Assembly: GCA_973895155.1 (NCBI GenBank)
Contig: OZ316891.1
Location: 11,840,771-11,904,770, forward strand
Direction of reading: 5' to 3'
Source: Marsupella aquatica
Lineage: Eukaryota > Plantae > Marchantiophyta
Length of the DNA: 64,000 bases
Shown piece after piece: positions 1 to 40,154 of the stretch (positions are counted from its first letter, which is position 1; each line of letters opens with the position of its first letter). A program made the translations under genes and the position numbers. The notes under the pieces are model-generated. The model ran no database searches and was not told where the DNA came from. It saw nothing but the letters and a program-made list of their open reading frames with translations.

Positions 1-1749
1 GAAAGTGCAAGCACCAGTGATAGTGACGGCCAGCAAGGGGAAGGGCAAGGGCAAGACAAAAGCTCCGGTTCCAAAACCAATTCAAAAGTTGGCTGATGAC
101 ATGAATCTTACACCTTGGAAAGATATCCAAGGTATCTCCAATGAGACTGTCATCCAAAAACTCTTAGAATGAGTGGTGGCAAAATACATCAGTTTAGAGG
201 AAATGGGGCACGAGGCCGATACGTACAAAAAGCTTAAAAAAATTAAAAATACATTTGTCCAACTAGCGAATCAAGAGAATTGGGCCGCATGTCGAGCTAT
301 GTTTCCCAAAGAAACTGAATCGAAAGAGCTCGAGCGATTTGTTGAGGTCATGGCCGCAGTTGTAAGTATTCCAAACCTCAAATTATTTTGAAGTTAATTA
401 ATTTGATTGTTGTTTAGATTTTAGAGATATTTTATATGATCCAAGTATCAAGTTTATTATTGGACCTCTGGTTTTGTAGTAGTTGAGAGACTTGATTAGC
501 TGATACTGAATTCAAAATATGATACCGAGTATCATCTTTGGTATTGACCTATATGTTTACTGGGAAATTCAGCCTTAGCAATCCCAGACATGATGTGGAG
601 TATCAAATTTGTTATTGGTCATTTGTTTAATCAAGATGTCTTCATTTTGTACTTATAGATCAAACTCTGCTCAAAGAGGAAAAAGGAGCCAAGGATTGGA
701 AATGAGGTTGATGAAGTCGGAGAAGAGGAACTTCCTGCAGATAAGATTCCTCTACGGTTCAGGAATTTTGTGGCCAAAGCAATTGAAGACTACAACAAGA
801 AGCTTGCAGGCGAGGAAGTCGAATCATCCGAATTCACATGGAAGAATGCTGATGGCGATGTGATGTCCTATGCTCTTCATACAGGAGATGCCAGGGTTTG
901 CAAGGCATTTTTGCCACCAAAAAATTATACTTTGGCCATAGCTGACATCCCATACGGTTTCAATGCGGTTGGGTCTGAGAATGACGAGAAGGCATTTGAG
1001 GAGAATGATATCATCGATATGGTGGAGGGATTTGCAAGTGTGACAACAGCTGAGGCTTGGCGCTTTGTTGTAATACATTCTTTGCAGCAGGTTAATAGTG
1101 TTATGAATGCTCTTGGTAAAACCTGCAATGCGGGAATTGAAGCTGGTATTTGGGAGAAGACTAATGTTCATGATCATCCATCAGGTAACAGGTTGGCTTG
1201 GTCTTTGAAAATTGGACAATTGGTTTTCATAGCAAAGATGGAATCAGGACAAGGGAGATGTACAATTTCACAAAAGAAGAGAGTAGAGGAAACATCATTA
1301 AAGTCCCATGCGTAACTGTGAAGTCAGTGACTCTTTTGGGGGAAATAGTAAACCCCTACCAAAAGCCAGTAGCTTTATCACAATATTTTGTGGATCATTT
1401 TAGCTATGAAGGGGATTGGGTTATAGACTTTTGTGCAGGGACAGACTCCACAACCTGTGCAGCCCTCCTCAGTCATCGACATGCTGCAGCAATTGAGTTG
1501 AGCCCTACTCAAGTAGATTTTATTGTAGGGCCAATTTAAACTCTAGACTCTAGGTGGCAATTGACTGAGGAGCATGAAATCCAAGGGACTGGGATTCAAG
1601 CTATGGAGATTCAACCGCCATTTGGTGGACTACAAACTAGCACAGTTATGACTGAGGTTGTCGAGTACGAGGACCATGTAGAGGATGAGGTAGTAGAAGC
1701 ACCTGAGGAAGATCATCCAGCTAATTTTGATGATATGTTGGAAGATTAA
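1..1749 (+). pseudogene. Beta-class N4-cytosine/N6-adenine DNA methyltransferase (N6_N4_Mtase-like), transposon-associated; 5' end outside window; disrupted
   Basis: Motif IV-like 'LAIADIPYG' (~930-955) precedes 'NPYQKPVAL' and motif I-like 'GDWVIDFCAGTDST...AAAIELS' (~1350-1500), i.e. beta-class order. GT-AG intron 362-658 joins the 173 frame in phase to the 770 frame. Lesions: TGA 170-172, frameshift ~1203, TAA 1537-1539; acidic tail to TAA 1749. Confidence 0.85.
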
Positions 1750-2069
1750 CTGATTTTGTATCAAGTTTTGAAAGTTAGACCGGTCAATAAACATTTTGTA
1801 ATTTGTTTTCTTGAAGTAATCAAACAAGTATTTCCCGCTGGTAATCTTGGATATTCTCCCAAGTTCCGTGCACTAAATATGTTGTAAAGAGTAGATTTTT
1901 TAGTCATGAACTTTGGCTAGTAGGGGTGGCTACCTTGTCGCTTGCTTTCTAGTCCCGATCAATATCTAATGTGATACTAGTATCATGTTATGTTTTTCTT
2001 TTTTCTTATCTAGTTTGGCTTAGTTCCTCGATAGTGTATGTAACTAAATATTTGCTCCGTCCATTGCAG

Positions 2070-2840
2070 AATGATATCTCCAATGATCTTCCACCTAGCA
2101 TCAGCAAAATTGAGTTGGATGATTTGCTTGCAAAGAAGGTTTTGAACACGGATTTGGTTCCCAAGGAAATTGATTTGAACGATGATTTGGATCCGAATGA
2201 AATTCTAACCACGATTGACAATTATGAGTTAAATCACAAACATATGAAATGTTTGTTACCTGGAGGATGGCTAACATCGGAGGTTGTAAATCCATATTTA
2301 ATTCTACTAAAGGAAAGGGAAGCCAAGAGGGAAGTGTGCAACACTTTCCCCACTATCAAGTGTCATTTTTTTGATACTTGGTTTTACAAACGTCTTTCAA
2401 ACCCATCTTATGGGTATAGCACAAGTGTTGCAAATTGGACAAAGAGGATAGGCTATAGCATATTTGAATGTGACAAGGTTCTTGTTCCTATTCATAATGA
2501 CTCATCTCGACATTGGTCTTTGGCAATAATCGACCTGAGGGCAAGGAAATTTGAATACTTAGATTCGTTGTGTAATGAGGATACACAGGTACTCATAAAC
2601 TTGGCTAGATATCTTGATGACGAAGCACTCCACAAATCCAAACCACAACTTGATGCAATGACTTGGGAAAGAGTCACTCCCAAAAATATTCCTAAACAAT
2701 TAGATGACTATAATTGTGGGATGTTTCTTCTCAAGTTTGCTAGTTGTCGGAGTTTAAATTTGGCTTTTGACTTCACCTCAAGTGATATGGAGAGGTTTAG
2801 AAGAGAAGTGATTTTACAACTTGTGACAAGAAAAATTTGA
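2070..2840 (+). CDS. Ulp1/SENP family C48 SUMO protease domain (transposon cargo; terminal exon)
   Basis: 'GWLTSEVVNPYL', 'HFFDTWFY', 'VPIH...HWSL' (His), 'YLDSL' (Asp), 'QLDDYNCG' (Gln/Cys): catalytic residues intact. Likely acceptor TTGCAG ending at 2069 in phase 0, with CTAA branch-like site at 2044. Confidence 0.9.
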   Translation, partial: NDISNDLPPSISKIELDDLLAKKVLNTDLVPKEIDLNDDLDPNEILTTIDNYELNHKHMKCLLPGGWLTSEVVNPYLILLKEREAKREVCNTFPTIKCHFFDTWFYKRLSNPSYGYSTSVANWTKRIGYSIFECDKVLVPIHNDSSRHWSLAIIDLRARKFEYLDSLCNEDTQVLINLARYLDDEALHKSKPQLDAMTWERVTPKNIPKQLDDYNCGMFLLKFASCRSLNLAFDFTSSDMERFRREVILQLVTRKI

Positions 2841-2940
2841 TAGTTACACAACAAATTTGATACATAAATCATTAAATTGATGCTATTGTAATTTAGGATT
2901 ACACTCAATAAAATCAAATGCTATGATGATTGTACAATGT

Positions 2941-4363
2941 TTAGCTATTGTCAACATTTTCTTCATTTGCCTCCACTAATTCAAGACTGCACTCCAAAAG
3001 TGCAGCTTGTATTATTTGCCTTGTCTTCACTGCTATTGTGTTGTTGGCTAACAAAGCAAAGTTGTATGCATAGACAACTGTTTCTAATAGGTTCAACTCT
3101 GCATGTAGAAGTTTCTTTGATGATGATGCCTCTTTCTCTGGATAATATTTTCCATCAATTGCAGACTCGGATTCACACTCAGTTGTATACCAAGTGATTT
3201 TGATCGTTTGTGGAACATCATCAACTTTGGTTACTATCTTTGTCACCTTGGCCATCCAAAAAGGCCTTCCACTAGGATCTTGATAAGCAGCAACACAAAT
3301 CATGGAATATTTGTTATTGACCTCCATGTCTTTGAAATCTCCCAACTCCGTTTGCTTTCTTCAAGTACCCGAGTACATGGCTCTCTCTGGTCCAGCTATT
3401 TTCTCTTGCAAAGTATCTTCGATAATCACTAGGGCCTCCGGGGTTGGCATCACTAAGCCACTTGCCGATTTGGGCCAAACCCAATTGAAACTCCATGCAT
3501 GTGGCATCCTCGAGATGGTTACATAAAATATCTTTCTGTTGATCAAAAAATGAATACCACCAAACTTTATCATCATTATCAAAATAATTGAATCCTACTT
3601 CAATTGCTTTTCGATATTTCTCCAGATGAGCAAGTCCTTTGCTAGTTGCATTGCCCTCTTCCTCGATCTCATCACTTATGCCAGAGCATTTGAGCGGCAT
3701 TTGTGATGCAACCCACATTGGGGATGTTGGAATGTAGTTAACAAATTCCACTGCTTCTCCCCAACCAATTGTTGTAGATAGATGTTTTCCATGAAATAAG
3801 ATTTTAACAATCCCATCGCTGCTCACACTCCTTTTCATTTGAAATTGTCTTTGATAGCTGATGAGATTGAGCGGTTGTAAAACTTTTCCTGCAAGCTCCT
3901 TGTCATTTGGCTGATCCTGGTCCTTCACAAATTTCCGAAAATCTGCTGTCTCACTTACAAAAATCACCTCCGGTAGTGGTTTGTATGAGGATTTAATGAT
4001 TTCGGTGAGTGTTTCCAACCTAAATGCCCTTTGCTTGTTCAACTTTGAAGAGAATTTGCTGAACATTTGATCAATTTGATCATGAGTATGCCCTACCAAA
4101 AGAAAACCAAGCTTTATCTTTTGGAAGATATTTAAATCTACCAACATATTTAAATATGCCATCACAAATTGATTTTTGTTCTCCCTAGCTGTGTTATCTA
4201 ACTGTAAATACAATATTGGAGGTAGACTTCCTTGCCATGTATTTAGCATATTTTGGATGACATGAATTGTCAAATTTGCATCATTATGAATATTAGGGTA
4301 ATTCAAGAAAACCTTTGATGAAAGGCGACCACTAAATATCAAACAACCTACAACATGTATAGG
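2941..4363 (-). pseudogene. DUF7869-type (DDE/RNase H-fold, Sola-like) putative transposase, 5'-truncated by the CACTA element, frameshifted
   Basis: 'LYLQLDNTARENKNQ...KLGFLLVGHTHDQIDQMFS' signature. Reading continues via a frameshift (~3520) and an in-frame TGA (3361-3363) into the 2941-3345 ORF. Residues of the listed ORF above 4363 derive from the CACTA terminus. Confidence 0.75.
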
Positions 4364-4379
4364 CACTACAACATATTTT

Positions 4380-4860
4380 GCCCTTTTGCGAAGCTCATTT
4401 GAGTCCGGACACACGTTTGCAATTCCAGATGCTTCAAACCGTTGATGACTCAATACGCATCGCAATTTGCGATACTTGTGGTATCGCAACTTTGGTCTTC
4501 CATGCGATTTGCATCGCAAACATTTTGCGAACTTTATTGTATCACAATAGTTTGCGAAACTACAGAGATTACAAAACACATTACAAAGGCTCCGCGACCG
4601 CTCCGAAAGTCCGAAACCACGGTAACATTAATGATGCGAAACAATTAGGATTGGAGGATGTTTGCGAAAAGGTTAGCTTCAAACAATTTGCGATGGGTTT
4701 GTATGGCAAATGTGCGAAACGATATGGATGGTAAAGGTGGGATGGTCTGGATATCGCAAAATAGTGAAGCGTATAGTATGGAATAATTGAGAAACGGTTT
4801 AAATGGCAGAATTGCAATTTGGTTGGGATTTGTTTAGTTTCGCAAACAGTTCGCAAACGT
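4380..4860. repeat. CACTA left subterminal repeat array (TTGCGAA/TTCGCAA motif, both orientations)
   Basis: Many copies of ttgcgaa/ttgcgat/tcgcaa in both orientations. Confidence 0.85.
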
Positions 4861-4889
4861 TTATGTTAGACTTGTGTGTGCATCTAGGT

Positions 4890-5115
4890 TAGAGTTTGAA
4901 TGGGGGAGGAGGAGGGAGGGAGGTGAAAGGTGAAAGAGGGAGGAAGGGAGTTGGAAGGTGGATGAGGGACGGAGGAAGAAGGGAGTCCAAAGAGGGTTTA
5001 CTAAAAATAGGAGAGACTTTAGCGAAGAGGGAGGGAGGAGAAAAAGCTATGGATTTTTTGGAAGAGGAAGGAGAGTTTGGGTTCAAAGAGGGAGGAGGGA
5101 TAAGGGAGGGAGTAC
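4890..5115 (+). repeat. Purine-rich (GGAGG/GAAGG) low-complexity tract
   Basis: Strongly G/A-biased sequence on the + strand. Confidence 0.7.
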
Positions 5116-5263
5116 CCATGTCACTTATATGCATGACCTCTTTTGAAAGTAGGAGTCCAAAATGAAAATACCTACCACACTAATGGTGTATGAAATATTA
5201 ATTAAGAAATAACATGAACAATCCATGATATAGATTTTTGGTTTAAATATCCATAAGTGTCTC

Positions 5264-7045
5264 TCACACTTGGTCACCTTCAATGTCCTCTACATCTGAC
5301 ACAAAAATAGTGTCTGGCTTGTCTGAAACAATGGAACGAGACCGTGGCACATATGTGATGACAAGTGACTACTCTGGGTCTAAGGGGTATGGAACGTATA
5401 AACATTGCTCCAAGTGAGATGGGAAAGTAAATGGCTCTGACGTTTGCCAATGAGATGCTTGAAAACTAGTGGCACTTGTCCTCAACCGTGTAAACCCACT
5501 CTCATCTTGGAGTACAGTGCGATTATTACCAACAAGGTTCACTTTGAACCACTTGCACTTGAAGACATACTCCTCAAACTTAGATTGGTTGTCATATGAG
5601 ACCACCAAAATCTCCTCTATCTTCCCATAGTGTGGCACAACATCACGAACAATGTTCCTGTCATGTCGGCTACTCCGGGAGTCCTGACAAAACTGCCCTT
5701 GAACTCCACAATCAAAAGTATGAGCCCTCTTCTCATCAAGGGAAGAAATCCTGAAATTAACAAGACCCATATATTGTTTACTACTACACAAAAAACACTA
5801 ATCATGTTATGAGGAACCTTTCATACCAAAAGAGAAAAACACACTTATCTTAAGTAAAATGATTACTATATCTTAAGTAGTAGTACATGAATATGGAAAA
5901 CAAGGTTAGGAACTAGTGAAACCTGAAGTGTCTCCCTTGGGTCCACATGGCCGTCTTGGATGTTACCACTCTCAAAGGGCCATGAACAATGGTCCGAATG
6001 TCATTTGTCATAGTAGGAAACTGTGAGACATCTCCTCCTTGTGCCAAAATGCCATCCAACTCAACCAACTTTTCCTTCATAAACTCATGCAACTTAGGAA
6101 AAATCCTTGCCCTTTGACTCATTCTTTTGGCATTGTCATAAAACTCCCTCCATTCATCCATGACATTGCTATTACTCAACATGAATGTATTCAACTGTGT
6201 CCACTCTGTTGATGTAAGCATGCGTGTTTTTGTTGCTCCTGTTAAACGGTCCTCCTCCTCTTGCCTCTCCTCCATCCAAGTACGTGGTAAAGTCCGATCA
6301 ATGGTGGCCAAGATGTTACTACAATAAAACATGCTCTCTGCAGCCAAGTATCCTGTAGCTATGCTTCCCTCCACTCGTGCACGGTTACGTACATAAGCCT
6401 TCAAGACTGACATGTAACGCTCAAGCCAGTACATCCATCGACAATGAACTGGACCAGCAATGGCAACCTCCCTCATAAGATGCACAAGTAAATGAACCTG
6501 ACAATCAAAGAAGGAAGGAGGGAGGGCCTTCTCCAACTTGCAAACCACCTTAGCTGCCAATACCTCCATTCCAGGAATCTCTTCCACATATATCTCCTTT
6601 GAGCATATCCATCTCAACAAACGACCCAATGACCAAATGGCATCTTGCACTTCTTTGATCCCCAACCCTATAATTGCCACTGGCAATATATGCTGCAATA
6701 AGCGGTGATAGTCATGTGTCTTGAGATACCGTGGCCATTTGTGATTGTCCTCCATCCCAAAAGCTTTCCTCAAATTGGCACCATAGCCTGTAGGAAACCG
6801 CATCTCCCCTATACGATTCCGGAATTCACGTCTTTGGCCAACACTAAGCACCCAAGGAGCAGAAGGACGATGTTCCAAACCTGTGGCAGGATCAACTTGT
6901 ACCCATACATCTGGATGCATTTCCAACTCTTCACATGCCTCCCTGAAGTTAGTGTCCTTCTCCCCATAAAAATGAGCTATCAACGCCTTCCCCACATTTC
7001 CCTCTATGTGCATGGGGTCTAAAAGATGGCGGATCTTCAACTCTG
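5264..7045 (-). pseudogene. CACTA TnpD transposase C-terminal part (DUF4218 + DUF4216); Transposase_21 core missing
   Basis: 'IRHLLDPMHIEGNV', 'LKTHDYHRLLQHILP', 'LPPSFFDCQVHLLVHL', 'GPVHCRWMYWLER', 'NRARVEGSI'. Intron ~5752-5921, then 'HYGKIEEI...VFKCKWF...DESGF...EPF...QCLY'. TAG at 5369-5371 where Trp is expected; stop at 5264. Confidence 0.92.
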
Positions 7046-8106
7046 ACCATAAGGGGCTGGTGGAGGACCCTCAATGAAAACCCACTCACAATTTTGCCTA
7101 CGCTTGGGGCGAGTCCCCACAGTACTGTTTATGAAACCAGCTATATTCCCAGTTCGTATGGGGTCCCCATCTATCACCCGCTGCTCACTATACCTCCTAG
7201 TGTTTCCATCAAAAGTATCTAACTCCAAGGCATAAGTCTTCCACTCAGGATGTTGTGCAAGGATCATGTTCCAATGTCTTCTCTTGTAGATGGGTCCACC
7301 ATAAGGAAACAACGTAGGTCCTTCTCGACCGCGTCCACCACTACCACTCTCGGTATCCACAATGATGTCTTCACAAGCAAAAACTCCATAGCCATGTCTA
7401 TCCCCAAGTGTGGAAGGTTTGATAACCCAACGTCTTCCCCAAACCTCTACCTCCTCACCATAGGAAAGCTCTTGTGGCAAACCAAGAGTCTGGGGATCCC
7501 AGTCCTTGATGATAGGAACACATCTGCCAGTAAACTCACAATCACCCCACCTACCGGTAACCACTGCCTTGTACAAATCAGTATCCCCTCGGGGCCGTCT
7601 CTTGGAACGCTTTCTCCCTCTTGGGACAACAGGCTCACCCCCAACTGCCCTAGGACTGGAGGGGGCTGTTGCTAGACCCAAGGCTTGTGAGAATGCATTG
7701 CCTATAGCATCTAGAACACCTTGTGATGGGACATAAGGTGCTGATGCCGCAGGTCTAGGCCTACTAGATACCTATTCCACCCAAACCAAAACAAACAACA
7801 AGAGGTGTGAAATTAAAAACCTTCACCATTGCAATGTGGAAATAGGGTAGAAACTAAGGCGTAAACACTTACCACATGGGATGAGGAAGCCCCTGTTGTA
7901 TGACGTCCGTAACGTCCATATCTCTCAATATGCTGGGTGCATATATAGGACTTTTGGGAAACCTGACCCACGCATTTGGCACATTGGCAAAGCTGACGGG
8001 GTGGACCACGAGGAGGAGGTGCAGTCGTGTGAGGTTGAGGAGGAGGTGGTATATCTTCATCGGAGGAGGAAGAATCTGTGGTGGAGATCTCAGAAGATGA
8101 AGACAT
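7037..8106 (-). CDS. Spliced ORF: transposase-associated Zn motif (CxCxxC..H..G) + SET-domain-like region, C-terminally truncated at junction with TnpD
   Basis: Exon 8106-7873 ('CQCAKC...QHIERYG'), GT-AG intron 7872-7772, in-frame exon 7771-7037 with SET motifs 'IKPSTLGDRHGYGVFACEDI', 'LFPYGG', 'YALEL', 'IDGDPIRTGNIAGFINS', 'NCEW'. Confidence 0.75.
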
Positions 8107-8694
8107 TGCCCCTACAAAGATGTATAATTTGCAAGTTAGGGGTTATTACCAAATAACATCACAATATCAAGCTGGACATGAAACCAAACACAAAAGGAAC
8201 ACTAAAAAATACCTTTCTGAGACCCAGGCTCAGCGGTGCCAATAGGTCTTGTGGCTCTAAAATAATGAACCGAATCTGGAAGTATGAGAAAAGCTGCAAG
8301 TACACAAAGCGAACACCTTACATACATGTCCTCTTTATAGATAGTGGGAACCAAAAATTTTAATTACATGAATAAGCCTAACTAGACCCATCTATTTTAG
8401 TCCGTACCTCCAGATGCCCGGGCTCATACGATGCATACGCATTAGCTAGTATCAATTCATGCAAAAGTGCCGCACCCTGCAAGTTGTCATAGCTCCTCCT
8501 CCTTTGTTAGCATAAAACCCATGGAAAAACCATTAAAACCCAAAAGATCCATAAAACCCATAAAACCCATGGTAAAACAACTAAAACATTAATCTCATCT
8601 AACCTTGCTTTGCCTTTTCCAAACCCTCACCCCCAAACCTCTGACCTATTACAAAAACCTAGACCCTCACTCCCAATCCCCTTCCTCTCTTTTG

Positions 8695-8965
8695 TTTTAA
8701 ACCCTAAACCCTTGCTTGAACCCTAAAAGCCTACAACCATAAATGCAAACCCTGCTTAAACCCAAAATTAAAGACTTAAACCCTAAACCCAAACCCAACT
8801 TTAATCCTAAACCCTTTCCTCACTTATTAATTTTAAACCAAAACCCAACTCTTATCAAAATTAGCCTACACCCACACCATGTATAGCTTAAAAAACGGAA
8901 GGTTTGACTGGTAATCTCGCTTTTAACCCCTAAAAAAACCAGCTTCATCCAAGACCCAACCCTAA
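8695..8965 (+). promoter_or_regulatory. Cluster of telo-box / degenerate plant telomere repeats (AAACCCTA, CCCTAAA) between the divergent CACTA genes
   Basis: aaaccctaaacc (~8699), aaccctaaaa (~8719), aaaccctaaacccaaaccc (~8778), cctaaaccct (~8806), cccctaaa (~8927), aaccctaa (~8958). Confidence 0.55.
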
Positions 8966-9435
8966 CAAACGCCGGGATTTGAAATGGCGGAATTTCTTAA
9001 TTACACAAAAGGGCATAGTATAACTTACATGGCCTAAACAAAAGGAGGAGGGAAAGAATGTGAAAAAAAATTTCGCCAGGAATTGCCACGATATTGAGAA
9101 CCGACCTGCTTCGCAACCTGCTTCAGAATTTGGTCACATTATTTGCGAAGCAAAATGTTTCGCAACAGCTTCGGAAAAACAAAGCCCGAGAGCGTTTTTT
9201 CGCGTGTCTGCAGCTTTGCGAAGGCTTTGCGAAGCGTGTGGTTTCGCATTGGTTTTGGAAAGTTGAGATACTAGTTGCGAAGCGGGCTGATTCGCAAATT
9301 GCGATGCGGACTGCGTCGCAAATGTGTTTTGTCTGGGCATTCGGACCTTCCCGCCGGGTTACAAGGCCCATTCGACGTTTTTTGAAGTGAGGGAGGGCAG
9401 GAGGAGAGCTTGCGCGCGCTTGGTGTTGGATAGCT

Positions 9436-11502
9436 ATGGATTCTAGTGGAGGGCGTGGAGGGGATGGGGCAGGGGCAAGTGGGAGTGGGAGTGGCAATGG
9501 CAATGGAGGGAACAGGAATGAGGAGAGTAATCAATGGACGAATTTGATGGCCGAGCATCTCAATGCCATACAGCTGAGCCATTTGGATTTGAGTACACCA
9601 GCTGGGATTGCTTCTTTGAGTGCAATTCTAGGGCAAGCTTTGCAAACCGGGGTTGCAGCAGGGCAGGCTCAGAGGGAGAAAGAGGCAAAGGCTGCAGCTG
9701 AGGAGAAGGCCAGAGAGAAGAAACGAAAGAAGGAGGAGAGGGCTAAGGCAGGAGTACTCTCTCCTGCAGCCCTCGAAAAGAAGAGGAGAAGGGAGGAACG
9801 AGATGAGATTCGAGCACAACGTGAGGCGCAGCGGAAAAAGGAGGAAGAGAGGAAGAAGCTGCCATTGATTGCCTTGGTTGAGGGCATTCCTACTGAGTTG
9901 GCCTACACTGGGGCAAAGAGCACTATCAGGCTTGCTGTGAGGACTAGCTTTGCATGAGGTGTTGAGTGGGGGAAACTAAGCAGAGCAGAGCAGTGGAAAG
10001 TAATGACTCAGGTCAAAGATTCATTCAGAAATGGAGCAGAGATTGATGACCAGTGGCTTGCAGATAGAATTTTGAATTCAATGTCTCAAGCACGATACCA
10101 TGATAGGAGGAAGGTGAGGGCCTACCTGGCAAGCTTGCAGGAGTACAGGAACGTGAGGAGGCCAGTGCAATTCACAGAGGATGTGTGGAACGCGTTCTAT
10201 AAGGTCGAGGTGCAGCTGAAAGCAACCAAGGACCTCCAATTCTGGAAGGAGAAGGAGGCCAAGGCACTTCAGGCCGGGAAGTCAGACAAAGACCTCAAGG
10301 CATTGGCTGAGAAGGTCTCTCAGCTGCAGCACATCGTGGATGAAGTGGGGACACCACCCCAGAAGTTCATCCTTGCAGCAGACCGAGTCAGCAAACGCCC
10401 CAAGACCACACACAAGATGGGGCAAGGTGGACTTCCCGGCCTGAAAGCAACCTTCGTGAGTCCTCTCCCCTCCTCCCCTGCTTCTTTTCCTTCGCCTTCA
10501 ATTGTTGTTTGCTTGCCTGCAATGCCCCTTGCAGACCTCTGCTTTACCCCTTATGGCCTCCCCTTTCGTTTTAGGTCACCCTGACACATTGCATGCCTTA
10601 GCCATTTCTCGGATTTTTTTAAAAGCACAATTTGCGAAACAATTGTGAAGCGGGTTGCCTCGCAATTGTTTCGCAAACTCTATTATAACCTTTTTCCCGT
10701 AAGGTTTGCGAAGCCATTGCGAGGCAATCCAATTCGCAGTCTATTTCGCAAACTTAAATATATTTGAATTTGCGAAGGTGGGAGTTTCGCAAAGCTTGTT
10801 TCATTTTGAAAAACGTTTAGTGTCGAGTGACAAATGTTTGTTAGGGTAATGGGGTTTTTTTTCTGGTTAGGGTACCCTTTTTACCCTTTTTAGGATTCCT
10901 TTTTTGCTTAAGTACCCTTAGTTACTAACCCGAGCCCCTTATGTTTTGGTGTTTCATTTTTTTGTGGTAGTATAAGAGGTACCGCCGCAAGATAACAACA
11001 AAGGAGATGGAGATTGGGGCAGAGCATGGGGCCAGACATCTCTTTGAGTTGGTTGATGCAGAGTTGGCTAGTGTGAGTGATTTGTAGTACCCTTTCTAAA
11101 CCCGCACCCATTCCATTTATAAGGTTTATACATTTTTCCTATTAACCCTAAACCCGAATTAACCTTGTGACATGGAAGCAGGATAAGGAGGAGCAGGAGG
11201 GGAGTGAGGATAGCAGTGAGGAGGATAGCGGCGCTGATGATGGGGACACTACCGAGGCCACCACGAGTGGGTCTAGAGGGGCAGGGAGTGCTGCCACACC
11301 TAGCACACCAGGAGACCAGGAGGATGATGATGAGGATGATGACGATGATGAGGATGAGCTAGATGGGGAGGAGCAGCAGGCACCACCACCACCGCCACCG
11401 CCACCACCACCACCACCCCCCTCCCGTCCAGCTCGTCCCGCCCAAAGCAAGAAGGACAAGGGGAAGAGGCCAGCAAAGAGGAGTAGGCGGGCTCCATTCT
11501 AG
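9436..11502 (+). pseudogene. CACTA second gene, TnpA/Ptta (Transposase_24)-like DNA-binding protein, multi-exon, one premature stop
   Basis: ORF 9436-9957 continues in frame past TGA (9955) into the 10003 ORF: 'W..L...QW', 'RRPVQFTEDVWNAF', 'THKMGQGG'. Donor GTGAGT ~10456; probable middle exon ~10971-11050; last exon with acidic, poly-Pro and basic NLS-like tail to 11502. Confidence 0.65.
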
Positions 11503-11689
11503 AGGATGCAGATGTAGTTCACTCCGTATGGCATATGGATTAGTCAAAGGACAGTGTCTTGGTATTTGATACCCCATAGGGTTTTAGAAAACCCTAATTT
11601 TTGTACATTCAGGGATTTTGCTTTGGTATCTTCATGTGGAGCAATAAGACCCCAACCCAATTATGAACCCAAATATACAAAACCAAGCC

Positions 11690-12110
11690 CTCAAACTATC
11701 CTTGCGAAACATATGCGAACGCCATACTATCGCAAACTTGCCATACATTGAGTATTGGAATATTGCGATACTTTTGGTTCCGCAATTGTGCGACACCCTC
11801 ACTGATGCAGTTATGCGATACCATATGAATGGCAACGGAATTGTCAAGACAACAGCTTCGCAAATAAGTTATAGTTCAAAGCGCGTCGCAAACCGATAAA
11901 GAGTCTGTCGAGATCGCATAAATGTGATTTATGTGCGATAAAATAAGTTTCGCAGTGTGCGAAGGTGTTGCGAAGGGGTTGTGAAAGTCCGATTGCGAAG
12001 CTGTGGGTTTCAAAGAATGCGAAAGGGTTGCGATGCGTAGCGTTTTGCAAACGCCGGAATTTCATAATTTGGTCCTTTGTTAGTTGCGATGGGACGGGGT
12101 TCGCAAAAGG
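11690..12110. repeat. CACTA right subterminal repeat array (TTGCGAA/TTCGCAA)
   Basis: Same motif as the left end, many copies in both orientations. Confidence 0.85.
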
Positions 12111-12129
12111 GGTCGGTAGTGTTGTAGTG

Positions 12130-15100
12130 CATGCTTCCTCTTCTGCTTTATCAGTAACAAAGAGTCGATTTAAACCAAAAACATCAATTCCTCAATGCTC
12201 TCGATCCAAGATTTTGGATTCAAAAAGTGTGGAGTGTTGGAATTGTGGCAAGACAGGCCACATCAAAAAGAATTGCAAAAAAAACCAAAGATTGCTTTTC
12301 ATCAGGCTAGTTTGGTTGTGTCTGATGATGAAGGATTTACTTTGTGCACCGATTCTTCTATCGTGCATTCAGAACTTGATTGAATTTTGGATTCTGCTTG
12401 TTCTTATCACATGACTTCGACAAGAGCTTTTTTTCATTCCTATGAATCCACTATCGGAAGTGTCTTGATGGGGAATGTTCAACCCTGCCAGATAATTAGC
12501 ATGGGTATAGTAAAAATTCAGATGTCTGTTGGCATTCTTCAAACGTTAACAAATGTCAAACATATTCCTCATCTCAAAAGGAATTTGATTTCTCTTGGAG
12601 CTTTGGACACTATTGGATGTCAGTGGAGTACAGTTGATGGCATTTTGCAAGTGAAGAAGGGATCTCTCAATGTCATGAAAGCCCAAAAGATAGGAAATTT
12701 ATATATCTTGAATGGAGACACCATCCTTGGCAATGTTAATGTGGTTTCATCAGAGGAGGACCAGACACGCTTGTGGCATGCACGACTAGGTCACATGAGT
12801 GAACAAGGATTGGCGGTGCTATGTAAGCAGAAACTCTTGCCCGATGCAAAGTCTTCAAGCTAGAATTTTATCAGCATTGTATTCTTGGCAAGCAGCATCG
12901 TGTAAGTTTTAACATTGCTCATCATATCTCCAAAGATATACTCGATTATATTCATTCTGATGTGTGGGAATCCCCAGTTCTTTCCATTTCATGCATGAAA
13001 TACTATATCTCATTTATTGATGACTATTCACACATGATTTGGATTTATTTCATGTGTGAGAAGTCGGAGGTATTTTCAATCTTCAAGAAGTGGAAAACAT
13101 AAGTTGAGACACAAACGGGAAAGAAGGTGAAGTATCTCCACTCAGACAATGGCGGTGAGTATATTTCCAACGAGTTCAACCTCTATTGTGAGCATGAAGG
13201 CCTTACTTGACATTTGACCAATGTGTATACTCCACAGCAAAATGGTGTTGTAAAACGGCTCAAGAGAACCTTGTTGGAGCGTTTGCAGAGTATGTTAAGT
13301 CAAGTAGGTCTTCCGCAGATCTTCTGGGCTGAAGATGTTAATACGGCAGCTTATTTGCTAACTTTATCTCCAGTTAGCAGCATTTGTTGTAAGACTCCTT
13401 TTGAGATATAGCACCAAAGACCTGTTGATTATACCAAACTACGTGTGTTTGGTTGTGAGGCATGATATGCTCTCTTGCCTCCAATATCACGCACTAAACT
13501 TGATCCAAAGTCTGTGCAGTGCATATTTCTTGGTTATCAGAAAGGAGTGAAATGGTATCGCCTATGGGACCCTTTGGCACAAAAGCTGGTAGTCAGCATC
13601 GATGTTTCATTCAATGAGGTTTTCTCATTGAAAGATGGGGAGAAAATGGTGGAAACTCCAAATGTTGACAGGATTGAGGGAGAGATTGAGCATGAATATG
13701 CTCATTAACTAGTGTTAGCGCCAACACCAATACCAGCAGCATCAGAACCAACTATTGAAGTGCCAGAATCATCAAAGAGATCTTCATCAAGACCTCACAA
13801 GGAGCCTACACGATTTGGAACTTGATTTCCATCTCAGGATCACATGGATATTGATGATGAAGATGCTGACGATTCTGGGAATGTGTTGATCATTGAGGAT
13901 GGAGAACCATCCACTTATTCAGAGGCCATGGCTTCCATTGAGAAGCCAGAATGGATTGCCGCCATGAATAAGGAAATGAAGTCACTCTATGACAACAAGA
14001 CGTGGCAACTAGAAAAACTGCCTCAAAAAAAGCAAGCAGTTGATTGCAAGTGGGTGTATAAGGTGAAAGAAGGAGGTAGTGATCATGAGGAGAAGATTTA
14101 CAAGGCAAGACTGGTTGCCAAGGGTTTTACACAACGCAAAGGTGTGGACTATAGTGATGTCTTCTCTCCAGTGATCAGACAAGCTACCCTTCGCTTACTC
14201 ATGGCACTTGTGGTTATTTTTTATCTCTGCTTGGAATAGATGGATGTTGTCACAGCTTTCCTAGATATGGTTTGCTGGAAGAGGTGATCTTCATGAGACA
14301 GCCTGAAGGGTATATATGTCAAAAGAGGCAAGGAGCATCTGGTGTGCAAGCTGTTAAAATCCTTGTATGGATTGAAACAGAGTCCAAGACAGTGGAACAA
14401 GAGATTCAAAGATTTTATGTTGTCACTTGGATTTATTCAAAGTGTGCATGACTGCTGTCTATACATGAAGAGAGTGAATGATGAAACTTTTGGTTTTATC
14501 TTGCTAGCTCTTTATGTGGATGATATGCTCATAGTAGCAAAGAATAAATCTGACATTACTAAGCTGAAAGCTCATTGAGCTCTGAGTTTAGTATGAAAGA
14601 TTTGGGTGTTGCTAAGTGCATATTGGGCATGGAGATTCATAGGGATAGACAAAATGACAAATTATGGTTGACACAAAGTAAGTACACTAATAAGGTTGTT
14701 GCCAAGTTCAATATGGCAAGTGCCAAGTCTGTGAGTACTCCTTTGGCATCACATTTCAAGCTTTCAGCTGCATCCTGCCCCACAGATGCAATTGAGAGAG
14801 ATCATATATCTAAGGTTCCCTATGATATTGTTGTGGGCAGTTTAATGTATCTTATGGTTTGTACCAGGCCCGATATAGCACATGCTGTTGGATTGGTGAG
14901 CAGGTACATGACTAATCCAGGAAAGATACATTGGGAAGCAGTAAAGTGGATACTACGTTATCTGCAGGGAACCTCTACTGTTGGACTGTTGTTTGATGCA
15001 CACAGTGAAGATGCGGAATCATTGATTGGCTATGTGGACTCTGACTATGGAGGAGATTTGGACCAGAGGAAGTCCACCTCAGGATACACTTTCACTCTTG

Positions 15101-15853
15101 CAGGTGGATGTGTGAGTTGGAGGTCCACAAAGCATAAATGCATATCTCAGTCTTCTACTGAAGCTGAATATGTGGTAGCAGCTGAAGCAGCTAAGGAGGC
15201 GATTTGGTTAAGCAACTTGGTGAAGGATTTGGGGATTACACAACGCATTGTGCTTCTCCATTGTGATAGCAATAGTGCTTTACACATTGCTGCCAACCAA
15301 ATGACACATGGCAAAGTTAAACACATTGATATCTGGTATCACTTCATCAGACAGGCAATGTCAGCAGGAAAGGTTGAGCTAGTCAAGATTGATGGTAAAC
15401 TCAATCCAGTTAACATGTTAACCAAGGTTATCCCTCATGGTGATTTTGCAAAATATGGCAATTCACTGCATATCTTAGCTTCATATTGCTAGCAGCTAGC
15501 TCAAGGCTAGAGTCAAGGGAGAGTTTGTTAGGGTTTCGACTCAACCTTGGCTAGGTTAAATAGAGTTAGTTAACCAGAATTAACATTAGTTGACTAGACT
15601 CTTCATGAAGAGATAACCCTCTTGGTGTCCCATGGAGAGAGAACACTTAGTTGAGAACTTTGTGAGAGAGAGAGAGAGAGAGAGCTTGGACCATGGAGCT
15701 ATGGTGATATGTATTTTTGTGTTCATAGTGAAGCTCTTGGTGCGGCCGTGGACGTAGCCCTGACGGGGTGAACCACGTATCTTTGTGTCAGTGTACCGGA
15801 GTGTTGTATGACTGACGATTATGAGACGTCATGCTGTCCGTTTCGATCCTACA
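12130..15853 (+). mobile_element. Ty1/Copia LTR retrotransposon, lacking 5' LTR and gag N-terminus, decayed
   Basis: Zn knuckle CWNCGKTGHIKKNC, protease 'ILDSACSYHM', GAG-pre-integrase 'LWHARLGHMSE', integrase 'TPQQNGV', RT '[26 protein letters not shown]', RNase H 'SSTEAEY/KHIDIWYHFIR'. Many stops and frameshifts. Confidence 0.96.
15526..15853 (+). repeat. Copia 3' LTR preceded by polypurine tract
   Basis: PPT AAGGGAGAG (15515-15523); starts TGTTAGG, ends CCTACA; contains (GA)n at ~15664-15683 and a 'ccgtggacgtagcc...gaaccacgta' Copia LTR-type motif. Confidence 0.8.
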
Positions 15854-21600: not shown

Positions 21601-24076
21601 CAAACGCTTCACACTTCGCTTTCAATGAATTAGTCTCTTACTGGTCTGCGGAGATTAAAAATATGAGCCGGAGATTCCCCACGAAAAGTACGCCGGAGAT
21701 ATGTATTGATGCGGTGTTGTTTAGAATAGATTGAAGCGGTTATAACCCGGGTTATAACAGCCGTAAGAATATTATGGACAGTCTCATGTCTGACTATACC
21801 ACTGATGATATTTATGCAGGTAAGAGAAGAACTCAAATGGGTCTGGCGAACCAACGACAGCAGCTGTCCGTGGCATCCCATGGACAGAGACGATTTCTGC
21901 AGGTATGAACATATAGATTAAAGCTACAGCAGATTCCCACATGATTGTCAACTAGACTGTCGAAACCCTCGAAAGATTAGATATCGTACTTTCATCATCC
22001 TGATTACAGAGTATCGAATTGCCCATTGACCCCGTCATCGAATTAATGATAATATATGTCGAGTATGGTTCTCATTGCTATTTCTTATTACTGCTGGAAG
22101 ACTACCAAGATGACCGCCCTCTACAGTAGAATCCACCTAGGCTAGCTTACGTGGGGTCAATTCACGTGTACATACAACTTTGTCTCTGCCAACGAGGTTT
22201 CCTGAGCAGTCTATCGGGTCTTTCTGCCAGCAGTTTTAACGACAATTTCTTCCTTAGAGTCTTTCCTTAACTTCTTTGACTAGCATGTCCCCCATTAAAC
22301 AATGCTTGCGCGGACGCCTAATTCACTCTATGGAGTAGTAGCTTAATTGTCAGGTAGTACAGGGTGGCCTAGGGTCATAGGGTCATTTTTTTTTGTTTTT
22401 GATTGTCGAGTGTTGCTGCGGCCTGATGACCCCGAACTGATGACCATAGCCTACCAGTTTATCCGAATTATATGATATTGGTCGACGTACAGTACGTGCT
22501 GCAGAAGCAACTGATGTTGGTTCTGATGAAATCTGTGTGATTGCAGACGAATAGGTTCGAAGAGGAACGTGCTGGTTGTGGGGGATTCCATCAATAATGA
22601 GATTTCTGAAGCCATCCAAAACGCCTTGCTGATGAATAAGAGCTCTGTGGTCACTGCGAAGCGCTACCCAGGTACAGAGTAGCCACTGTCGCCCGAATCT
22701 CATCCTGTCCTTCCTTAGAAAGTTAAGAGACACTAATTGCAATGAGGCTCCGCGACCCGGTACAATTCATCTACAGTATGAGCCAAATTGTCCCAAAACT
22801 GAACTTAATCGGATTCTGTAACAACTTATTTGGCTTCAATATTTGTTTATTGGTTTGAAACTTGAGCTATCTGAATTCGGCACATTTCAAAGCCTGATTC
22901 GTAGACCTCTTGCCAGTTCCATTACATTTCGTGTGCCCCGTGCGCTTGAGTTAAAAGAGAGCCTGACAACTATATATCATACAACCTGAAGACGCACCAA
23001 CGATATCCATCTGTAGTCACGAGACCGGCGCACTTGGCATGATCAATGTAGTTATAAGTGTTGATATAATCCTTGTGTTTATCAATGCGTGCGACATAGG
23101 TGAGGAGCTGTGCAGCGACATCCTGGGGGGTGAAGACAAGGGGTTTCACGTGTACTTTGTACGCAATGACTACGTTTCTCCAGTGGTCAACGCCACCTCC
23201 TTTGGCAGAAACTTCCAGGACCCATGGTTGCCGCACCTTGAAGAAGGCGATGGCGCCATCAAGATCCTCGTCCTCAACCGTGGTGCGCACTACCAAGAGG
23301 ACGAGAGGTTCGTCCAGGGACTCCGAGCTACTTTCGAAGTCCTGCGCGACCGGCACCCCGAGCTACTGGTTATCTACAGGAATACACCTTCCGGTATATT
23401 TCTCGATCTTCCACTACACAAAAATGTTCAAGCGCCCTCCAATCGTAACCTTTCTGAAGTGCAGTGATTCTCTAGGATCTCGACAATGAGCTCTGGGAAC
23501 TCACTGCGTCTAATCTGCTACTACGATATGATCATAACCAGTCCTTTTGTATTTGTCCAAGATGTCTGCCAAAGCTGTCTTTTTTAGTTTTATGTTAGGA
23601 CCAAGGATTCACGGAGTCTACCCCTGAACATGTTTATAATAATTACATAGGTACGCACACTGAATTTTTAAGCATCAACTAGAAGTGATCAAAGGCGCAT
23701 CCTGCCTTATCCGTTTGATGACCGGAAGCCCAAGGGCGTCACATGTTCTGGCTGCTCGTGGTGTACTAAACAGCATCTTCAAATTGATTGTGGTGACTCT
23801 GCAGGTCATGTCAATTGTACAGATTTCCATGCTCCTATTGACAAGCCTCTCAAGGGTGCACTGCCCTCGTTCCATTGGGAGGATTTCGATCGACAAAACG
23901 CTCTTGCGAAAGACATTGTCGAGGAGTTCCAATACATCTATCTTGACGTCGCAAGGCCTATCGGCATGAGACCGGAGGGGCACCAGCATAGCCGGGATTG
24001 CTTACACTACTGCCAACCTGGACCCCTGGACCTTGCTGTCGAGATGATCTACAATGTGCTTTGGCTCCTTCCTTAA
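18669..24076 (+). CDS. Trichome birefringence-like (TBL)/PC-esterase polysaccharide O-acetyltransferase, 6 exons
   Basis: Exons 18669-19138, 19518-19689, 21820-21902, 22547-22671, 23100-23393, 23805-24076 with GT-AG borders. N-terminal TM helix, 'GRWMYD', 'WVWR...C', 'VVGDS', 'LNRGAH', 'YRNTPSGH', 'RPEGH...DCLHYCQPGP'. Confidence 0.88.
20856..20988. repeat. ~80-bp-period imperfect tandem duplication in TBL intron 2
   Basis: 'atcccatact.gtt.gg..caccttcactttttgtcttattgagagtta.tgtct' occurs twice. Confidence 0.7.
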
Positions 24077-26627: not shown

Positions 26628-29262
26628 TTAAGTTTGAAGTACTGATGAAAGGAGCGGCTCTTCGATGTCCTCACCAGCTAAGGACACAGCAAGGTCTTCT
26701 CTCGTCTGTGCCAGTCGATGTGCTCGTTGACCCCAGACCACAAGATAGAGTCCAGCCAGGATGAGTATAGCTCCAATCAGGCTGCCTAGGTAAAGCGGGT
26801 CGTCTAGAACAACCAACCCCAAAAATACTGAGAACACCGTCTGGAGAGGAATGTATGCCGCCAATAGAATTGGGCCACCCTTTTGATTCGCCCAAGTTTG
26901 CAGAGTGAAATTTAGCCCTGAAGCAACGAAACCCGCGTAGAGAACAGATGCAATGTTTCCTGGCTGGTCTATAACCCACTGGGAAGCATCAGAGACGGTG
27001 ACACTACCCGTGATAATAAGGGCTACGGTGCCCACAAAGATAGAACCGGCTGTGATAGAGATTGGAGCTGGAAAAATCCTCAAAGTTGGAATCTGCAAGT
27101 TGGTGTAGATCCCCATGCAGAGGCAGTTGAGAATAAGGCAAAGTGAGCCAATCTGCCAATGATCCAGCGCGTATCCCACTAGGCTTGAAGTAAGCCATCC
27201 GTGGTGAGAGACGTCGTCCGTATCAGCTTCAGGGAATGGTAATAGTTCACTTCCAAGCAGAATGGGTCCCTTGTAGAGCGACATGACTATGGCTCCTATG
27301 ACACACGCCAAAATTCCCATCAGTTTGGCCCATCCGTCAATCTTTGTGAGTCGAATGACCTCATATCTGCAGATGACCGCAATGAGGAAAGTGAAAACGG
27401 GGATTGCATTTTGCATGGCAGCCGCAAATCCAGTGTTTGTGTACGATAGACCGGTGAGAAATAGTGTCTGCTGTAGAAAAATTCTGCACAAAACACAAAG
27501 AACGAAGAATTAGGACCATATCATTCTAAAGTTACTAAAGAACCCCCTGACTTGAAGGCTTTTCCGCAAGAGCCTCTTCAGACAGAGTCATATCTCTTTG
27601 GAATTTCCTTACTGTTGAGGATCAAGCCTATATGGAAACCCGTTCAGACAATCATTAACAAGTGACAGCAGAGGTAGAAGTCCTATTGCAACTGTTCCTT
27701 ATTACAATCTCTTCTGCTCCTATCTTATCAGTATTTGAACATGTTTCCTTTCACTGTTGACGACGTGGCGCTTTCTGCTCTATTGTCCCTTTCATCCATA
27801 GGGGCACCATGAACTGTAAAATCTTCCTTCAATTTAAATTCCTGCCCAGTCATCCAATTGTCTCGACATAAGAGATCCATTCTTCTCTTGCGATTCATAA
27901 TTGCCAAGCTTCCGCAAAGAGTCTCAATTTTTTTTGTTCGAATTAATGTCCATCCCCTTTCGCAGTGATTATCAGCTATTTTAGCACTATTCGTCTGATA
28001 TGTACCGCCGTGCTTGTTCATTGTGGTAGTGGCTCTACAAGAAACCCAGGAGCTTGCATTTAGGTCGTGTCTGTGGTTCCATAAAAAACTTAGGAGCTTA
28101 CAATTAAGAAGCGGTCCACCTTAAACTTTCCAGACAACTAAGAGTCAGCTTTCTATTAACTGGAAGCATACATTATTTAATTGATATACTTAAGACTGGT
28201 ACTTGCGCTGAAACATCTGCATAACCCTAGGTCCTTAACTAGCACACCTTTCCCGTGGAAGTCACTGTACAATTTTGGTCCTGGAGGTCGTTTATATACA
28301 GTAGAACATGAGAATTCTTTCATTTTGAAGATCTTGCGAAGGGGGGTGACTGAACCTCATTTCTTAGCTTGTAAAACAAAGTGAGATCGACATCAGTAGT
28401 GGAACTCACCCAACGACTCCAAGCGCAGAAATGTACAAACAAACCGGCAGTGTAAACGCCGTCCTCGCATGTCTGCATAAAATCCCACAAAATCAAGGTC
28501 AACATGACGCTCCCATTCAACCCCTCTGGTCTGATCAGGACGAAGTTACCTACACAGAAAAGCATCCGACACGTTTAGATAAAAGTTTCTGAGGAGACTT
28601 CAAATCTCCCTTCAATTCTGCTAAGTCTACTCTAACAAAGAGCAGCCGCTTGCCTAACAAGAAAATGAACACTTAGGTCTGTCTTTTGTACTGGCCAACT
28701 CGACCAGGGTATACAAGTTCTATATAAATCAACTTATTCATTGCATAGTGTATTGCAGTCATGAATCTACAGCATTCAGCTCTGCTTCAGGGTGGACAGA
28801 GAGTCGCAAAATCAACTTTTATCGGAAATCGACACATAATCCCAAGTTACATGATATAAGTATTTCCGTTGACCCCTACTCCAACTTGTCACCTACAATG
28901 ACTTGCTCTGACTATCAAGCCAAGCACGAAGAGGTGGTCCACTGCCAGAAAACATGCTACGACGTACAAACACTCAGAAATGTCTTAGAACAACACCCTG
29001 GACTTCAAATCACAAGAATTTCAAACCTTTCCATGAAGTAGGCCAAAGGAGTGAGCAGCGCAAGCCCGATGAGCTCCCGATAGACAGCGAACACGAATCG
29101 GTCAAAACCACCGGTCATGGCCGCTTTGGTTAAAACATAGTACCCTCCATATCCAATCTGCACCGTCACCAGTGCCAACTGCACCCTCGTCCGCTCCGCA
29201 AAGCAAAGCCATGACCCAGTGCTCTTAGTAGCACTACTGCTGCTTGCTTCCGGGGCCCCCAT
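26628..29262 (-). CDS. WAT1-related / UMAMIT (EamA/MtN21) transporter, 3 exons
   Basis: Exons 29262-29027, 28472-28410 (63 bp, 'TLPVCLYISALGVVG'), 27483-26628. 'VFAVYRELIG', 'AAAMQNAIPVFTF', 'GGPILLAAYIPLQT', 'GLYLVVWG'. Confidence 0.93.
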
Positions 29263-38361: not shown

Positions 38362-40154
38362 AGGTGTGAGTAAAATTAATGTCCAATCAGTCTAGTTTTC
38401 TTTGTAAATTTAGGGGTTGCGCGAAGGGGAGACTTTCTATTTGCTACTCAAGTACTTCCACGAAACAGTACATAATTCTTTACCATTTATTCGGACAAAT
38501 ATTGACCATTAGATCTTGGCTACAACTTCCAGATGCACTCCTTACATAGGCGAATTTTGCTCTAAATTGCAATAAAAACACCAGAATGTGAAGCTTGGAT
38601 GGACTGAGGGGTTTGCTTTAAAGCCTTCGTGGATTTCCAAAGCTGGGATGGGACTGACTCAGAACATTAAAAAATTCTCAAATAGTATGCTTTACAGTTC
38701 TGACTGAAATGTACCAAATATGCTCTTGACAGTCTGCAACGGGTTTCCATAAGAAGTTTTTGTTGTGGTAAGTCATTGCCTCATGCACAAGCTACTCATC
38801 ATGCACGAGCTACTCAAAGAGTCCTTCACAAAAGTAAAACATCCTTCCCCAAACTAAGTGAGAAGTCATTAATCATGCATAAACTACTCAAGGCCTCTTT
38901 GACAAAAAGTGAAGCGGCCCTCCTTGATTTGGTAAGTTGCTGCTCACTGGCCCAACTAGGGAGGGCTTTCTTCACAATAGTGAAAGGTATATTGGCAGTT
39001 GGTTTATTATATTTTACTACTGTAGTTGTGCATTCCTTGGCAATGGAACAAATGATCTCAGCAAAGCTCAAACTTTGTGAGGTAATGGATTGACATCAAA
39101 GTACACGCTGAAAATCTTGAGCCTAAACAAACATCCAATTTGTCCAAATCAATGCACAAGTTTGCCAAAACCTAGAGGCACAAGTCTGCCAAAAAACCAA
39201 CATTTTACAGTTGACTGGGGCGCCCGGAAAATTTACTTGAGGCCTCCTTCTAAAAGTTGAAGCGTCTTTCCAAAAGCAGTCAGTCAGTGTGAATTTTGGG
39301 TGTAAAGCAAGGCCAGGTGTGTCCCAGGCCATCAGATGGGCAAAACCATTTTCCATTGGATGCCTCAATAATTTCCAAAAAACTACTTTTGCATCATTTG
39401 CATAAACTTTCAATAGCTGATTTATTGGCCCAAATTTGCCAAAATTCACTGTGTCCAACAGTTGAGTAAAGTTGGGGTCCCAGCCCGCATTGAACAGTGT
39501 GTTACATAACACTCAACAAGTAATTCAAGAGCAAGAAAGTGGCTAAGGGAAAAAAAGTGAACGGTCCGATGTAGCGCTCCGTCATTCCCGGTGAGGGGAG
39601 AGTCGGTGAGGGGCAGGGCCTTTTGGTGGAAGGGGGAGGGTAATTTTTTGCGCTCCGCTCACTGTTTTTCACGGTAACCAGCCGTTAGCGTTATATTTTC
39701 AAATCCACAGGCCGCTTTCTGCCGCCCAGGGAGATCTGGACTCCTCTCCGATGCTCTGCATTTACCCTGTGTTTTTGTCTTATCTTAACCGCTAGTTGGG
39801 TTTCCTTAGGGTAATCACGCGATTTACACACCCTAAGACTCTCAATTGCTGAACGCTCAGTACTCCCTGCACACTACGAACTCAGCGTTTTACTAAGATT
39901 TTGACCAATTTTTGAAATTTGTTGCGCTTTTTGATATCCTGCGTCCTGCTCATGGCAATCACTCCCTGGAGCTGCTGATTGTATACCATTGCTCTACCCC
40001 AATACAATCCGCGCAACCCCCAGGCTAAGCGAGGGTAACAGACGGCTCCACGGAGTGCATCGCATCAAGCAATTGTACAGTCTCAACTGTGACTTTCAGC
40101 TTGATTTCAAATATCAGCCTACTGTTTCCTCCGTCCTCCCTGGACCTCCAAAGA

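Follow-up and report, generated by a model that had tools for sequence, protein, structure and literature searches.

Transposons that may mark their own DNA have been described from algae. Sola1-1_Ec32, an element of the brown alga Ectocarpus, carries on its opposite strand a second gene for a ParB-like domain together with an N4/N6 methyltransferase, and it was proposed that the element binds and modifies itself; the best blastp match listed for it is the moss element Sola1-1_PPa (PMC12477816). In Plavaka (EnSpm) elements of the red alga Bostrychia, a gene with the PF01555 domain is accompanied by a ParB gene next to arrays of inverted repeats (bioRxiv 10.1101/2025.02.11.637652), and ParB-linked methyltransferases have been listed in algae and fungi (PMC4738411). 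Here, we describe a related locus in a stretch of 64,000 nucleotides from the liverwort Marsupella aquatica (contig OZ316891.1, positions 11,840,771 to 11,904,770), hereafter the window, to which all positions refer. On balance, we favour the view that positions 1-4363 are the decayed middle of a Sola1-type cut-and-paste transposon, whose ParB-methyltransferase is predicted to bind the element's own palindromes and to write N6-methyladenine (6mA).

Like Sola1-1_Ec32, this element is very likely a transposon with a ParB-methyltransferase gene on the opposite strand. As far as the published description goes, on which this comparison is based, it differs from the brown algal element in being of land-plant type, in a Ulp1 gene between the two genes, in the tail-to-tail layout and in palindromes specific to subfamilies. 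With PAG2/PAG3 of Plavaka it shares a transposon-borne PF01555 methylase, a ParB-like protein beside tandem inverted repeats and the same self-marking hypothesis. Plavaka, however, has a transposase of another superfamily and, in the available part of the report, the methylase is fused to a SET domain and ParB to a 2-oxoglutarate oxygenase, in separate genes. An earlier note on this DNA had implied that the design is novel, but it is already published for algae, in Ectocarpus and in related form in Bostrychia. What is new is the land-plant-type member and the added Ulp1 gene. In the literature searched, we found no land-plant report of a ParB-methyltransferase transposon; Iyer 2011, Bao 2009 and the supplements of the Ectocarpus and Bostrychia papers could change that. 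The supplements of a survey of terminal inverted repeat (TIR) elements in 1007 plant genomes have no entry for N6_N4_Mtase, PF01555 or DUF7869 (PMC12973397).

The earlier note had read from the sequence three packed genes, a methyltransferase (+), Ulp1 (+) and a convergent DUF7869 (-), with about 100 bp between the last two stops, a beta-class order of methyltransferase motifs, an in-phase spliceosomal intron and a decayed copy. All of this was borne out. Pfam profiles match the three genes at 1189-1536 (PF01555 N6_N4_Mtase, E=3.3e-9, above the cut-off), 1953-2837 (PF02902 Ulp1, E=1.4e-35) and 3317-4627 (-) (PF25273 DUF7869, E=3.2e-49). The stops of Ulp1 and DUF7869 are 100 bp apart, and the spacing of 1191 bp between the stops of methyltransferase and DUF7869 is occupied by Ulp1. 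In the methyltransferase exon (659-1749, +), which ends in an acidic tail, DIPY (944-955) is followed by QKP (1360-1368) and DFCAGT (1426-1443, within motif I at 1426-1449), which is the beta order. The intron in front of it (362-658) has GT...AG ends and is in phase 0. Its position is identical in five (L001-L005) of six related loci (L001-L006), which were obtained from 188 pattern matches and all belong to one metagenome assembly.

The earlier note overlooked that the methyltransferase exon makes up the 3' half of its gene and is preceded by an exon for a ParB-like/helix-turn-helix (HTH) region. This ParB-like exon begins upstream of the window, and its 3' portion lies at 1-361 (+). The portion matches the upstream exon in all six metagenome loci (in L003 with 38% identity and E=7e-16), and full-length homologs align with the upstream exon in their N-terminal part. 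One of these homologs, P0049, is linked to the L003 exon with E=6e-27; the match to the HTH_ParB profile is weak (E=9e-4) and below the cut-off. In a structural model of P0049 (pLDDT, the predicted local distance difference test, 78.9), residues 520-770 match CcrM with Z 23.7 (root mean square deviation (rmsd) 2.8, 218 aligned), followed by M.BceJIV (Z 23.1) and MboIIA (Z 22.0). The region at about 100-240 matches the ParB-like protein PadC (Z 9.4, rmsd 3.0, 99 aligned) and KorB (Z 8.4), and a long helical region lies between the two domains. In the accessory gene product, as in those of the Sola1-1_Ec32 type, a ParB-like domain and an N4/N6 methyltransferase are fused. Upstream of the ParB exon and on the same strand, there is a further conserved open reading frame (ORF) (L001 403-1779, L003 138-1235; 38% identity over 213 aa). 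Neither Pfam nor PHROG profiles match it, and it may represent another exon of the element or its third gene.

Fusions of this kind are also known from phages, where ParB-N and a beta-class methyltransferase with the motif DPPY are found in one chain (PMC4738411, bioRxiv 10.1101/2025.10.10.680097). The identity between the phage fusions and the family described here is only about 24-26% and is confined to the methyltransferase; the phage genes are without intron, whereas the family has the helical linker and lacks the arginine of the P-motif. Two of the four phage loci examined are ParB-N fusions near terminase genes. In two phages (L009 1-3172, L010 1209-3244) the ParB-methyltransferase lies near a gene for S-adenosylmethionine (SAM) synthetase as well as near terminase genes.

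The gene on the minus strand (2941-4363) is the 3' portion of a DUF7869 gene whose 5' portion is lost. DUF7869 homologs have three conserved acidic motifs with likely catalytic aspartates; the window retains the second and the third, followed by a C-terminal domain. The model of a homolog, P0185, is weak (pLDDT 52), but a wide structure search ranked integrase/transposase cores first, among them the simian immunodeficiency virus (SIV) intasome (Z 9.2, rmsd 3.1, 128 aligned, with a model of low confidence). Fold and motifs argue for a likely transposase of integrase type. The C-terminus (2944-3300 (-)) is conserved in homologs from Riccia and Ceratopteris and resembles BAH chromatin-reader domains with Z 6.1-6.5, below the trusted level of the search tool. 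Among named transposases, those of Ceratopteris and Riccia come closest (37-47% identity), which makes a seed-free land plant the likely host. DUF7869 probably corresponds to the Sola1 transposase, and the name Sola1 for the element is likely by analogy with Sola1-1_Ec32. Sola1 elements make a target-site duplication (TSD) of 4 bp with an AWWT-like preference (PMC3845634). DUF7869 itself is not mentioned in the literature searched. Replitrons, which are defined by a HUQ motif and the catalytic tyrosine in GYxxK (PMC10288648), were considered and rejected: neither motif is found in the conserved columns, and the fold is integrase-like.

That the ParB-methyltransferase is borne by a transposon is very likely. 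In three of the six loci DUF7869 lies tail to tail with an intact methyltransferase, 316 (L002), 358 (L003) and 341 bp (L005) past its stop, so that transposase and ParB-methyltransferase are on opposite strands of the same element in the window and in these three loci. L001 and L004 extend for only 357 and 302 bp past the methyltransferase stop and are too short to show DUF7869. dN/dS is 0.04-0.13 where it is measurable, in the methyltransferase, the ParB exon and the transposase tail, with silent sites at or near saturation in most pairs; the relatives are under purifying selection. The runs of the source organism also contain diverged in-frame paralogues of the methyltransferase and many diverged DUF7869 pieces. 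Pattern scans, which reach close relatives only, found no methyltransferase relatives in viral contigs (0/59 stretches) or prokaryote genomes (GTDB; 0/24) and no transposase relatives in viral contigs (0/2). The proposal of a eukaryotic DNA transposon with a prokaryote-type amino-methyltransferase is upheld by the recurring pair, the purifying selection and the lack of prokaryotic or viral relatives in these scans.

Alternatively, the methyltransferase could be a domesticated host gene, or the locus a chance pile of unrelated remnants, among them an insert from a bacterium, phage or virus. The summed contig depth of the subfamily is low compared with that of a neighbouring CACTA element, and no termini are visible, as expected from such an origin. 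This is nevertheless highly improbable, as the pairing with the transposase recurs in diverged copies, each assembly has many paralogues, the spliceosomal intron is conserved, and the pattern scans of GTDB genomes and viral contigs found no relatives; phage enzymes match the family with only 24-29% identity.

Which base would be modified? Of 612 candidates from a search with the N-terminal half of the methyltransferase, 13 are relatives with open frames and 51-60% identity; a search by profile yielded 1298 proteins at E<=0.001. Twenty family proteins were looked up, and the named sources are Chara, Riccia (2), Adiantum and Ginkgo; with members in Ginkgo, the family reaches seed plants. One Chara protein has two ParB-methyltransferase units in tandem. 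A tree of 64 of 175 sequences, picked by coverage, was calculated by a quick method with support from the Shimodaira-Hasegawa-like approximate likelihood ratio test (SH-aLRT) alone and with long-branch warnings. It places the window in a clade of 22 rows (support 100) inside a group of 41 rows (93) with Chara, Riccia, Adiantum and Ginkgo. The four phage enzymes fall outside this plant group, again with long-branch warnings; the Marchantia and rotifer enzymes DN4MT1 and N4CMT are not among the rows. Catalytic and SAM motifs are conserved across the 64 rows. The first residue of motif IV is D in 62/64 of them and SPPY occurs in none, and this favours 6mA over N4-methylcytosine (4mC): if the enzyme is active, 6mA is the likely product, as far as can be told from the motif. 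Some 4mC enzymes, for example M.BamHI, carry a D-motif as well.

The earlier note had leaned to 4mC and to kinship with MpDN4MT1 of Marchantia and N4CMT of rotifers, in which case elements of this type would have brought 4mC enzymes to plants. We regard this as very unlikely. These proteins are indeed prokaryotic-type beta-class amino-methyltransferases in eukaryotes, but they are host genes that write 4mC, have no ParB domain and are not reported to be transposon-borne in the available parts of the two papers; DN4MT1 has TSPPY, with no additional N- or C-terminal domains described there, and N4CMT has SPPY, whereas bacterial 6mA enzymes typically have DPPY (bioRxiv 10.1101/2021.02.12.428880, PMC8885841). 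The window has DIPY. On the other side, the beta-class fold is common to 4mC enzymes, and PvuII (Z 20.2) and N4CMT (Z 19.8) match P0049 at 520-770 likewise; N4CMT is also the top PDB sequence match, although not significant (E=0.019). 6mA enzymes take the first three places among the structural matches, though the differences in Z are small.

Palindromes are found in the non-coding DNA of the related loci. One is common to L001, L002, L004 and L005, another is present in L003 and a third, weaker one in the window, and the type of palindrome tracks the methyltransferase clades of the tree. The half-sites are located in non-coding DNA in 19/20 cases in L001, 6/6 in L002, 11/11 in L004 and 13/13 in L005; for the different motif of L003 it is 19/22 and for the window 6/7. 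They lie within the intron of the ParB-methyltransferase gene and flank the gene on both sides. In the window, the intron has three degenerate palindrome-like repeats (near 437, 519 and 592), and a perfect palindrome of this type, 14 bp long, is present at 1972-1985 between methyltransferase and Ulp1. Whether the element targets itself through these palindromes is, in our opinion, evenly poised. The ratio of observed to expected CpG is 0.81-0.86 in L001-L005 and 0.54 in L006; the contrast of L001-L005 to the window is a hint only, as it depends on the background of the metagenome host.

A similar link of an accessory protein to family-specific non-coding motifs is described for the plant VANDAL elements with VANC, and capture of Ulp1 as cargo for KAONASHI; both are Mutator-like elements (MULEs) (PMC13317346). 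These differ from the window in having a MULE transposase, and VANC is not a methyltransferase but induces loss of methylation; ParB is absent, as far as described in the available part of that report. By combining these lines, the following model can be put forward. The DUF7869 transposase would move the element, the ParB-HTH part would bind the element's own non-coding palindromes, and the methyltransferase would write 6mA near the bound sites. The mark would keep the element active, most likely by protection from host silencing, and Ulp1 would remove SUMO (small ubiquitin-like modifier) from proteins at the element that act in silencing or repair.

Several findings speak against this model. 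The palindrome motifs were chosen post hoc, after the sequences had been viewed, and the neighbouring CACTA element has non-coding repeats of its own; the arrays may therefore be transposase sites. The window copy is CpG-depleted (observed/expected 0.40) and thus not shielded from 5-methylcytosine (5mC). The arginine of the canonical ParB box II, GxxR, is missing, the motif being GGNHG in L001, L003 and L005 and GGGHS, GGNHT or GGNHS in the others, and with GGNH-G/S/T in this place, behaviour as a nucleoside triphosphate (NTP) clamp is doubtful. The fold matches, including those to 4mC enzymes mentioned above, belong to homologs and not to the window's own proteins, and Foldseek with the transposase model (pLDDT 52) gave no match at E<=0.001. 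L001-L006 come from one assembly and for this reason cannot count as independent species. In L006, which is more distantly related, there is no DUF7869 match in the 503 bp after the stop and no palindrome array. Finally, no terminus, TIR or TSD of the element is visible in the window or in L001-L006.

One could also argue that the ParB-methyltransferase aids transposition rather than opposing silencing, by holding or marking the ends or by protecting the element from its own transposase, with the palindromes as transposase sites. Internal and terminal repeats are indeed present also in the CACTA element of the same window, which has no methyltransferase match, and phage ParB-methyltransferase fusions adjoin terminase genes and have a predicted role in DNA packaging (PMC4738411). 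The location of the palindromes within the ParB-methyltransferase intron and on either side of the gene, comparable to Plavaka PAG3 and the VANC motifs, speaks against this assumption, as do the conserved catalytic and SAM motifs. Altogether we consider it unlikely and prefer self-marking against silencing.

The Ulp1 exon (2070-2840, +) is an open frame that aligns with SENP2 (E=1e-30), including the His-Asp-Cys triad and the oxyanion Gln. By sequence, it encodes a SENP-type protease with a full catalytic set and predicted SUMO specificity. It is preceded by a phase-0 acceptor-like site at 2070 and has no clear start or 5' exon. The exon at 659 starts at a phase-0 acceptor-like site as well, so the ParB exon could be joined to either the methyltransferase or the Ulp1 exon; the methyltransferase tail contains phase-0 GT sites, too. 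In the earlier note, Ulp1 was a fixed member of a three-gene toolkit and the three genes were expected to occur together. This stands for methyltransferase and DUF7869, found together in 3/6 loci, but not for Ulp1, which is absent from 6/6. Ulp1 is likely an additional cargo, acquired later by the window subfamily between the two convergent genes. It could instead be a stray fragment that was inserted in the window lineage only and is not working cargo, which would agree with its absence from the related loci, the missing start or 5' exon and the single relative found, which is without context. This is rather unlikely, for the frame is open and the catalytic residues are intact, whereas both neighbouring genes are broken. 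In addition, contigs of three of the four runs of the source organism (X1, X3 and X4) span from within Ulp1 into the transposase tail, a second variant of the Ulp1 region, about 5% diverged over 2033-2191, is present in X1 and X2, and Ulp1 cargo recurs in plant TIR elements.

The copy in the window is dead. The reading frames are interrupted by TGA 170-172, a frameshift near 1204, TAA 1537-1539 and a frameshift in the transposase near 3494-3509. Each of these lesions is missing from at least one contig across the four runs, which shows that the decay is recent; the position of TGA 170-172, for example, is C in contigs of X1, X3 and X4. A fully open methyltransferase was not among the contigs listed from these runs. 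No further DUF7869, methyltransferase or Ulp1 pieces were found in the rest of the window. Of the two ends of the element, one lies outside the window on the upstream side, and in place of the other there is a separate CACTA element (4364-12129), overlooked in the earlier note, which begins where the transposase gene ends at 4363. It has TIRs of 10 bp, sub-terminal repeats and DUF4216/DUF4218 genes; there is no TSD, and the flanks differ (AGG versus CAT). Its right neighbour (12130-15800) is the remnant of a Copia gag-pol that has lost its 5' part and has only one long terminal repeat (LTR). The DUF7869 gene and Copia are both cut exactly at the CACTA ends, and the 5' half of the transposase and the end of the element were probably lost by adjacent deletion or by recombination between two CACTA copies. 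CACTA carries its own non-coding repeats in 18 copies and no methyltransferase match. Its summed contig depth in the four runs is about 10 to 100 times that of the methyltransferase subfamily, a value not taken as copy number. An ORF inside CACTA at 7040-7771 (-) has no Pfam or PDB match; its motifs may resemble those of a SET domain.

Self-marking of transposons to evade silencing has been proposed for the algal elements, with no test reported in the available parts of those papers. The family described here offers intact natural open frames and one candidate binding site per subfamily, and the three palindromes allow cross-tests. It also provides a candidate enzyme and a candidate place for DNA 6mA in plants, with named members in Chara, liverwort, fern and Ginkgo. 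It is tempting to speculate that these elements are a widespread, old Sola-type family of land plants and related algae that has a private read-write system, in which a ParB-HTH module recognizes the palindromes of its own subfamily and 6mA is written; in the window subfamily, one DNA-binding exon would be spliced to either methyltransferase or SUMO protease. We think that this is improbable; if true, it would be a writer-based counterpart of VANDAL/VANC, in the window subfamily with two anti-silencing effectors, and would define an enzyme behind DNA 6mA in plants up to Ginkgo.

The remainder of the window contains intron-poor genes of host type: a piece of a PC-esterase (23672-24076), two EamA transporter paralogues on opposite strands (26628-27509 (-) and 37405-38361 (+)), a glyoxalase-family ORF (47412-47870) and a WD40 gene (58547-60474). 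Between them lies a decayed element at 40029-46081 that resembles a long interspersed nuclear element (LINE), with an endonuclease domain found by Pfam and reverse-transcriptase-like ORFs recognized by eye.

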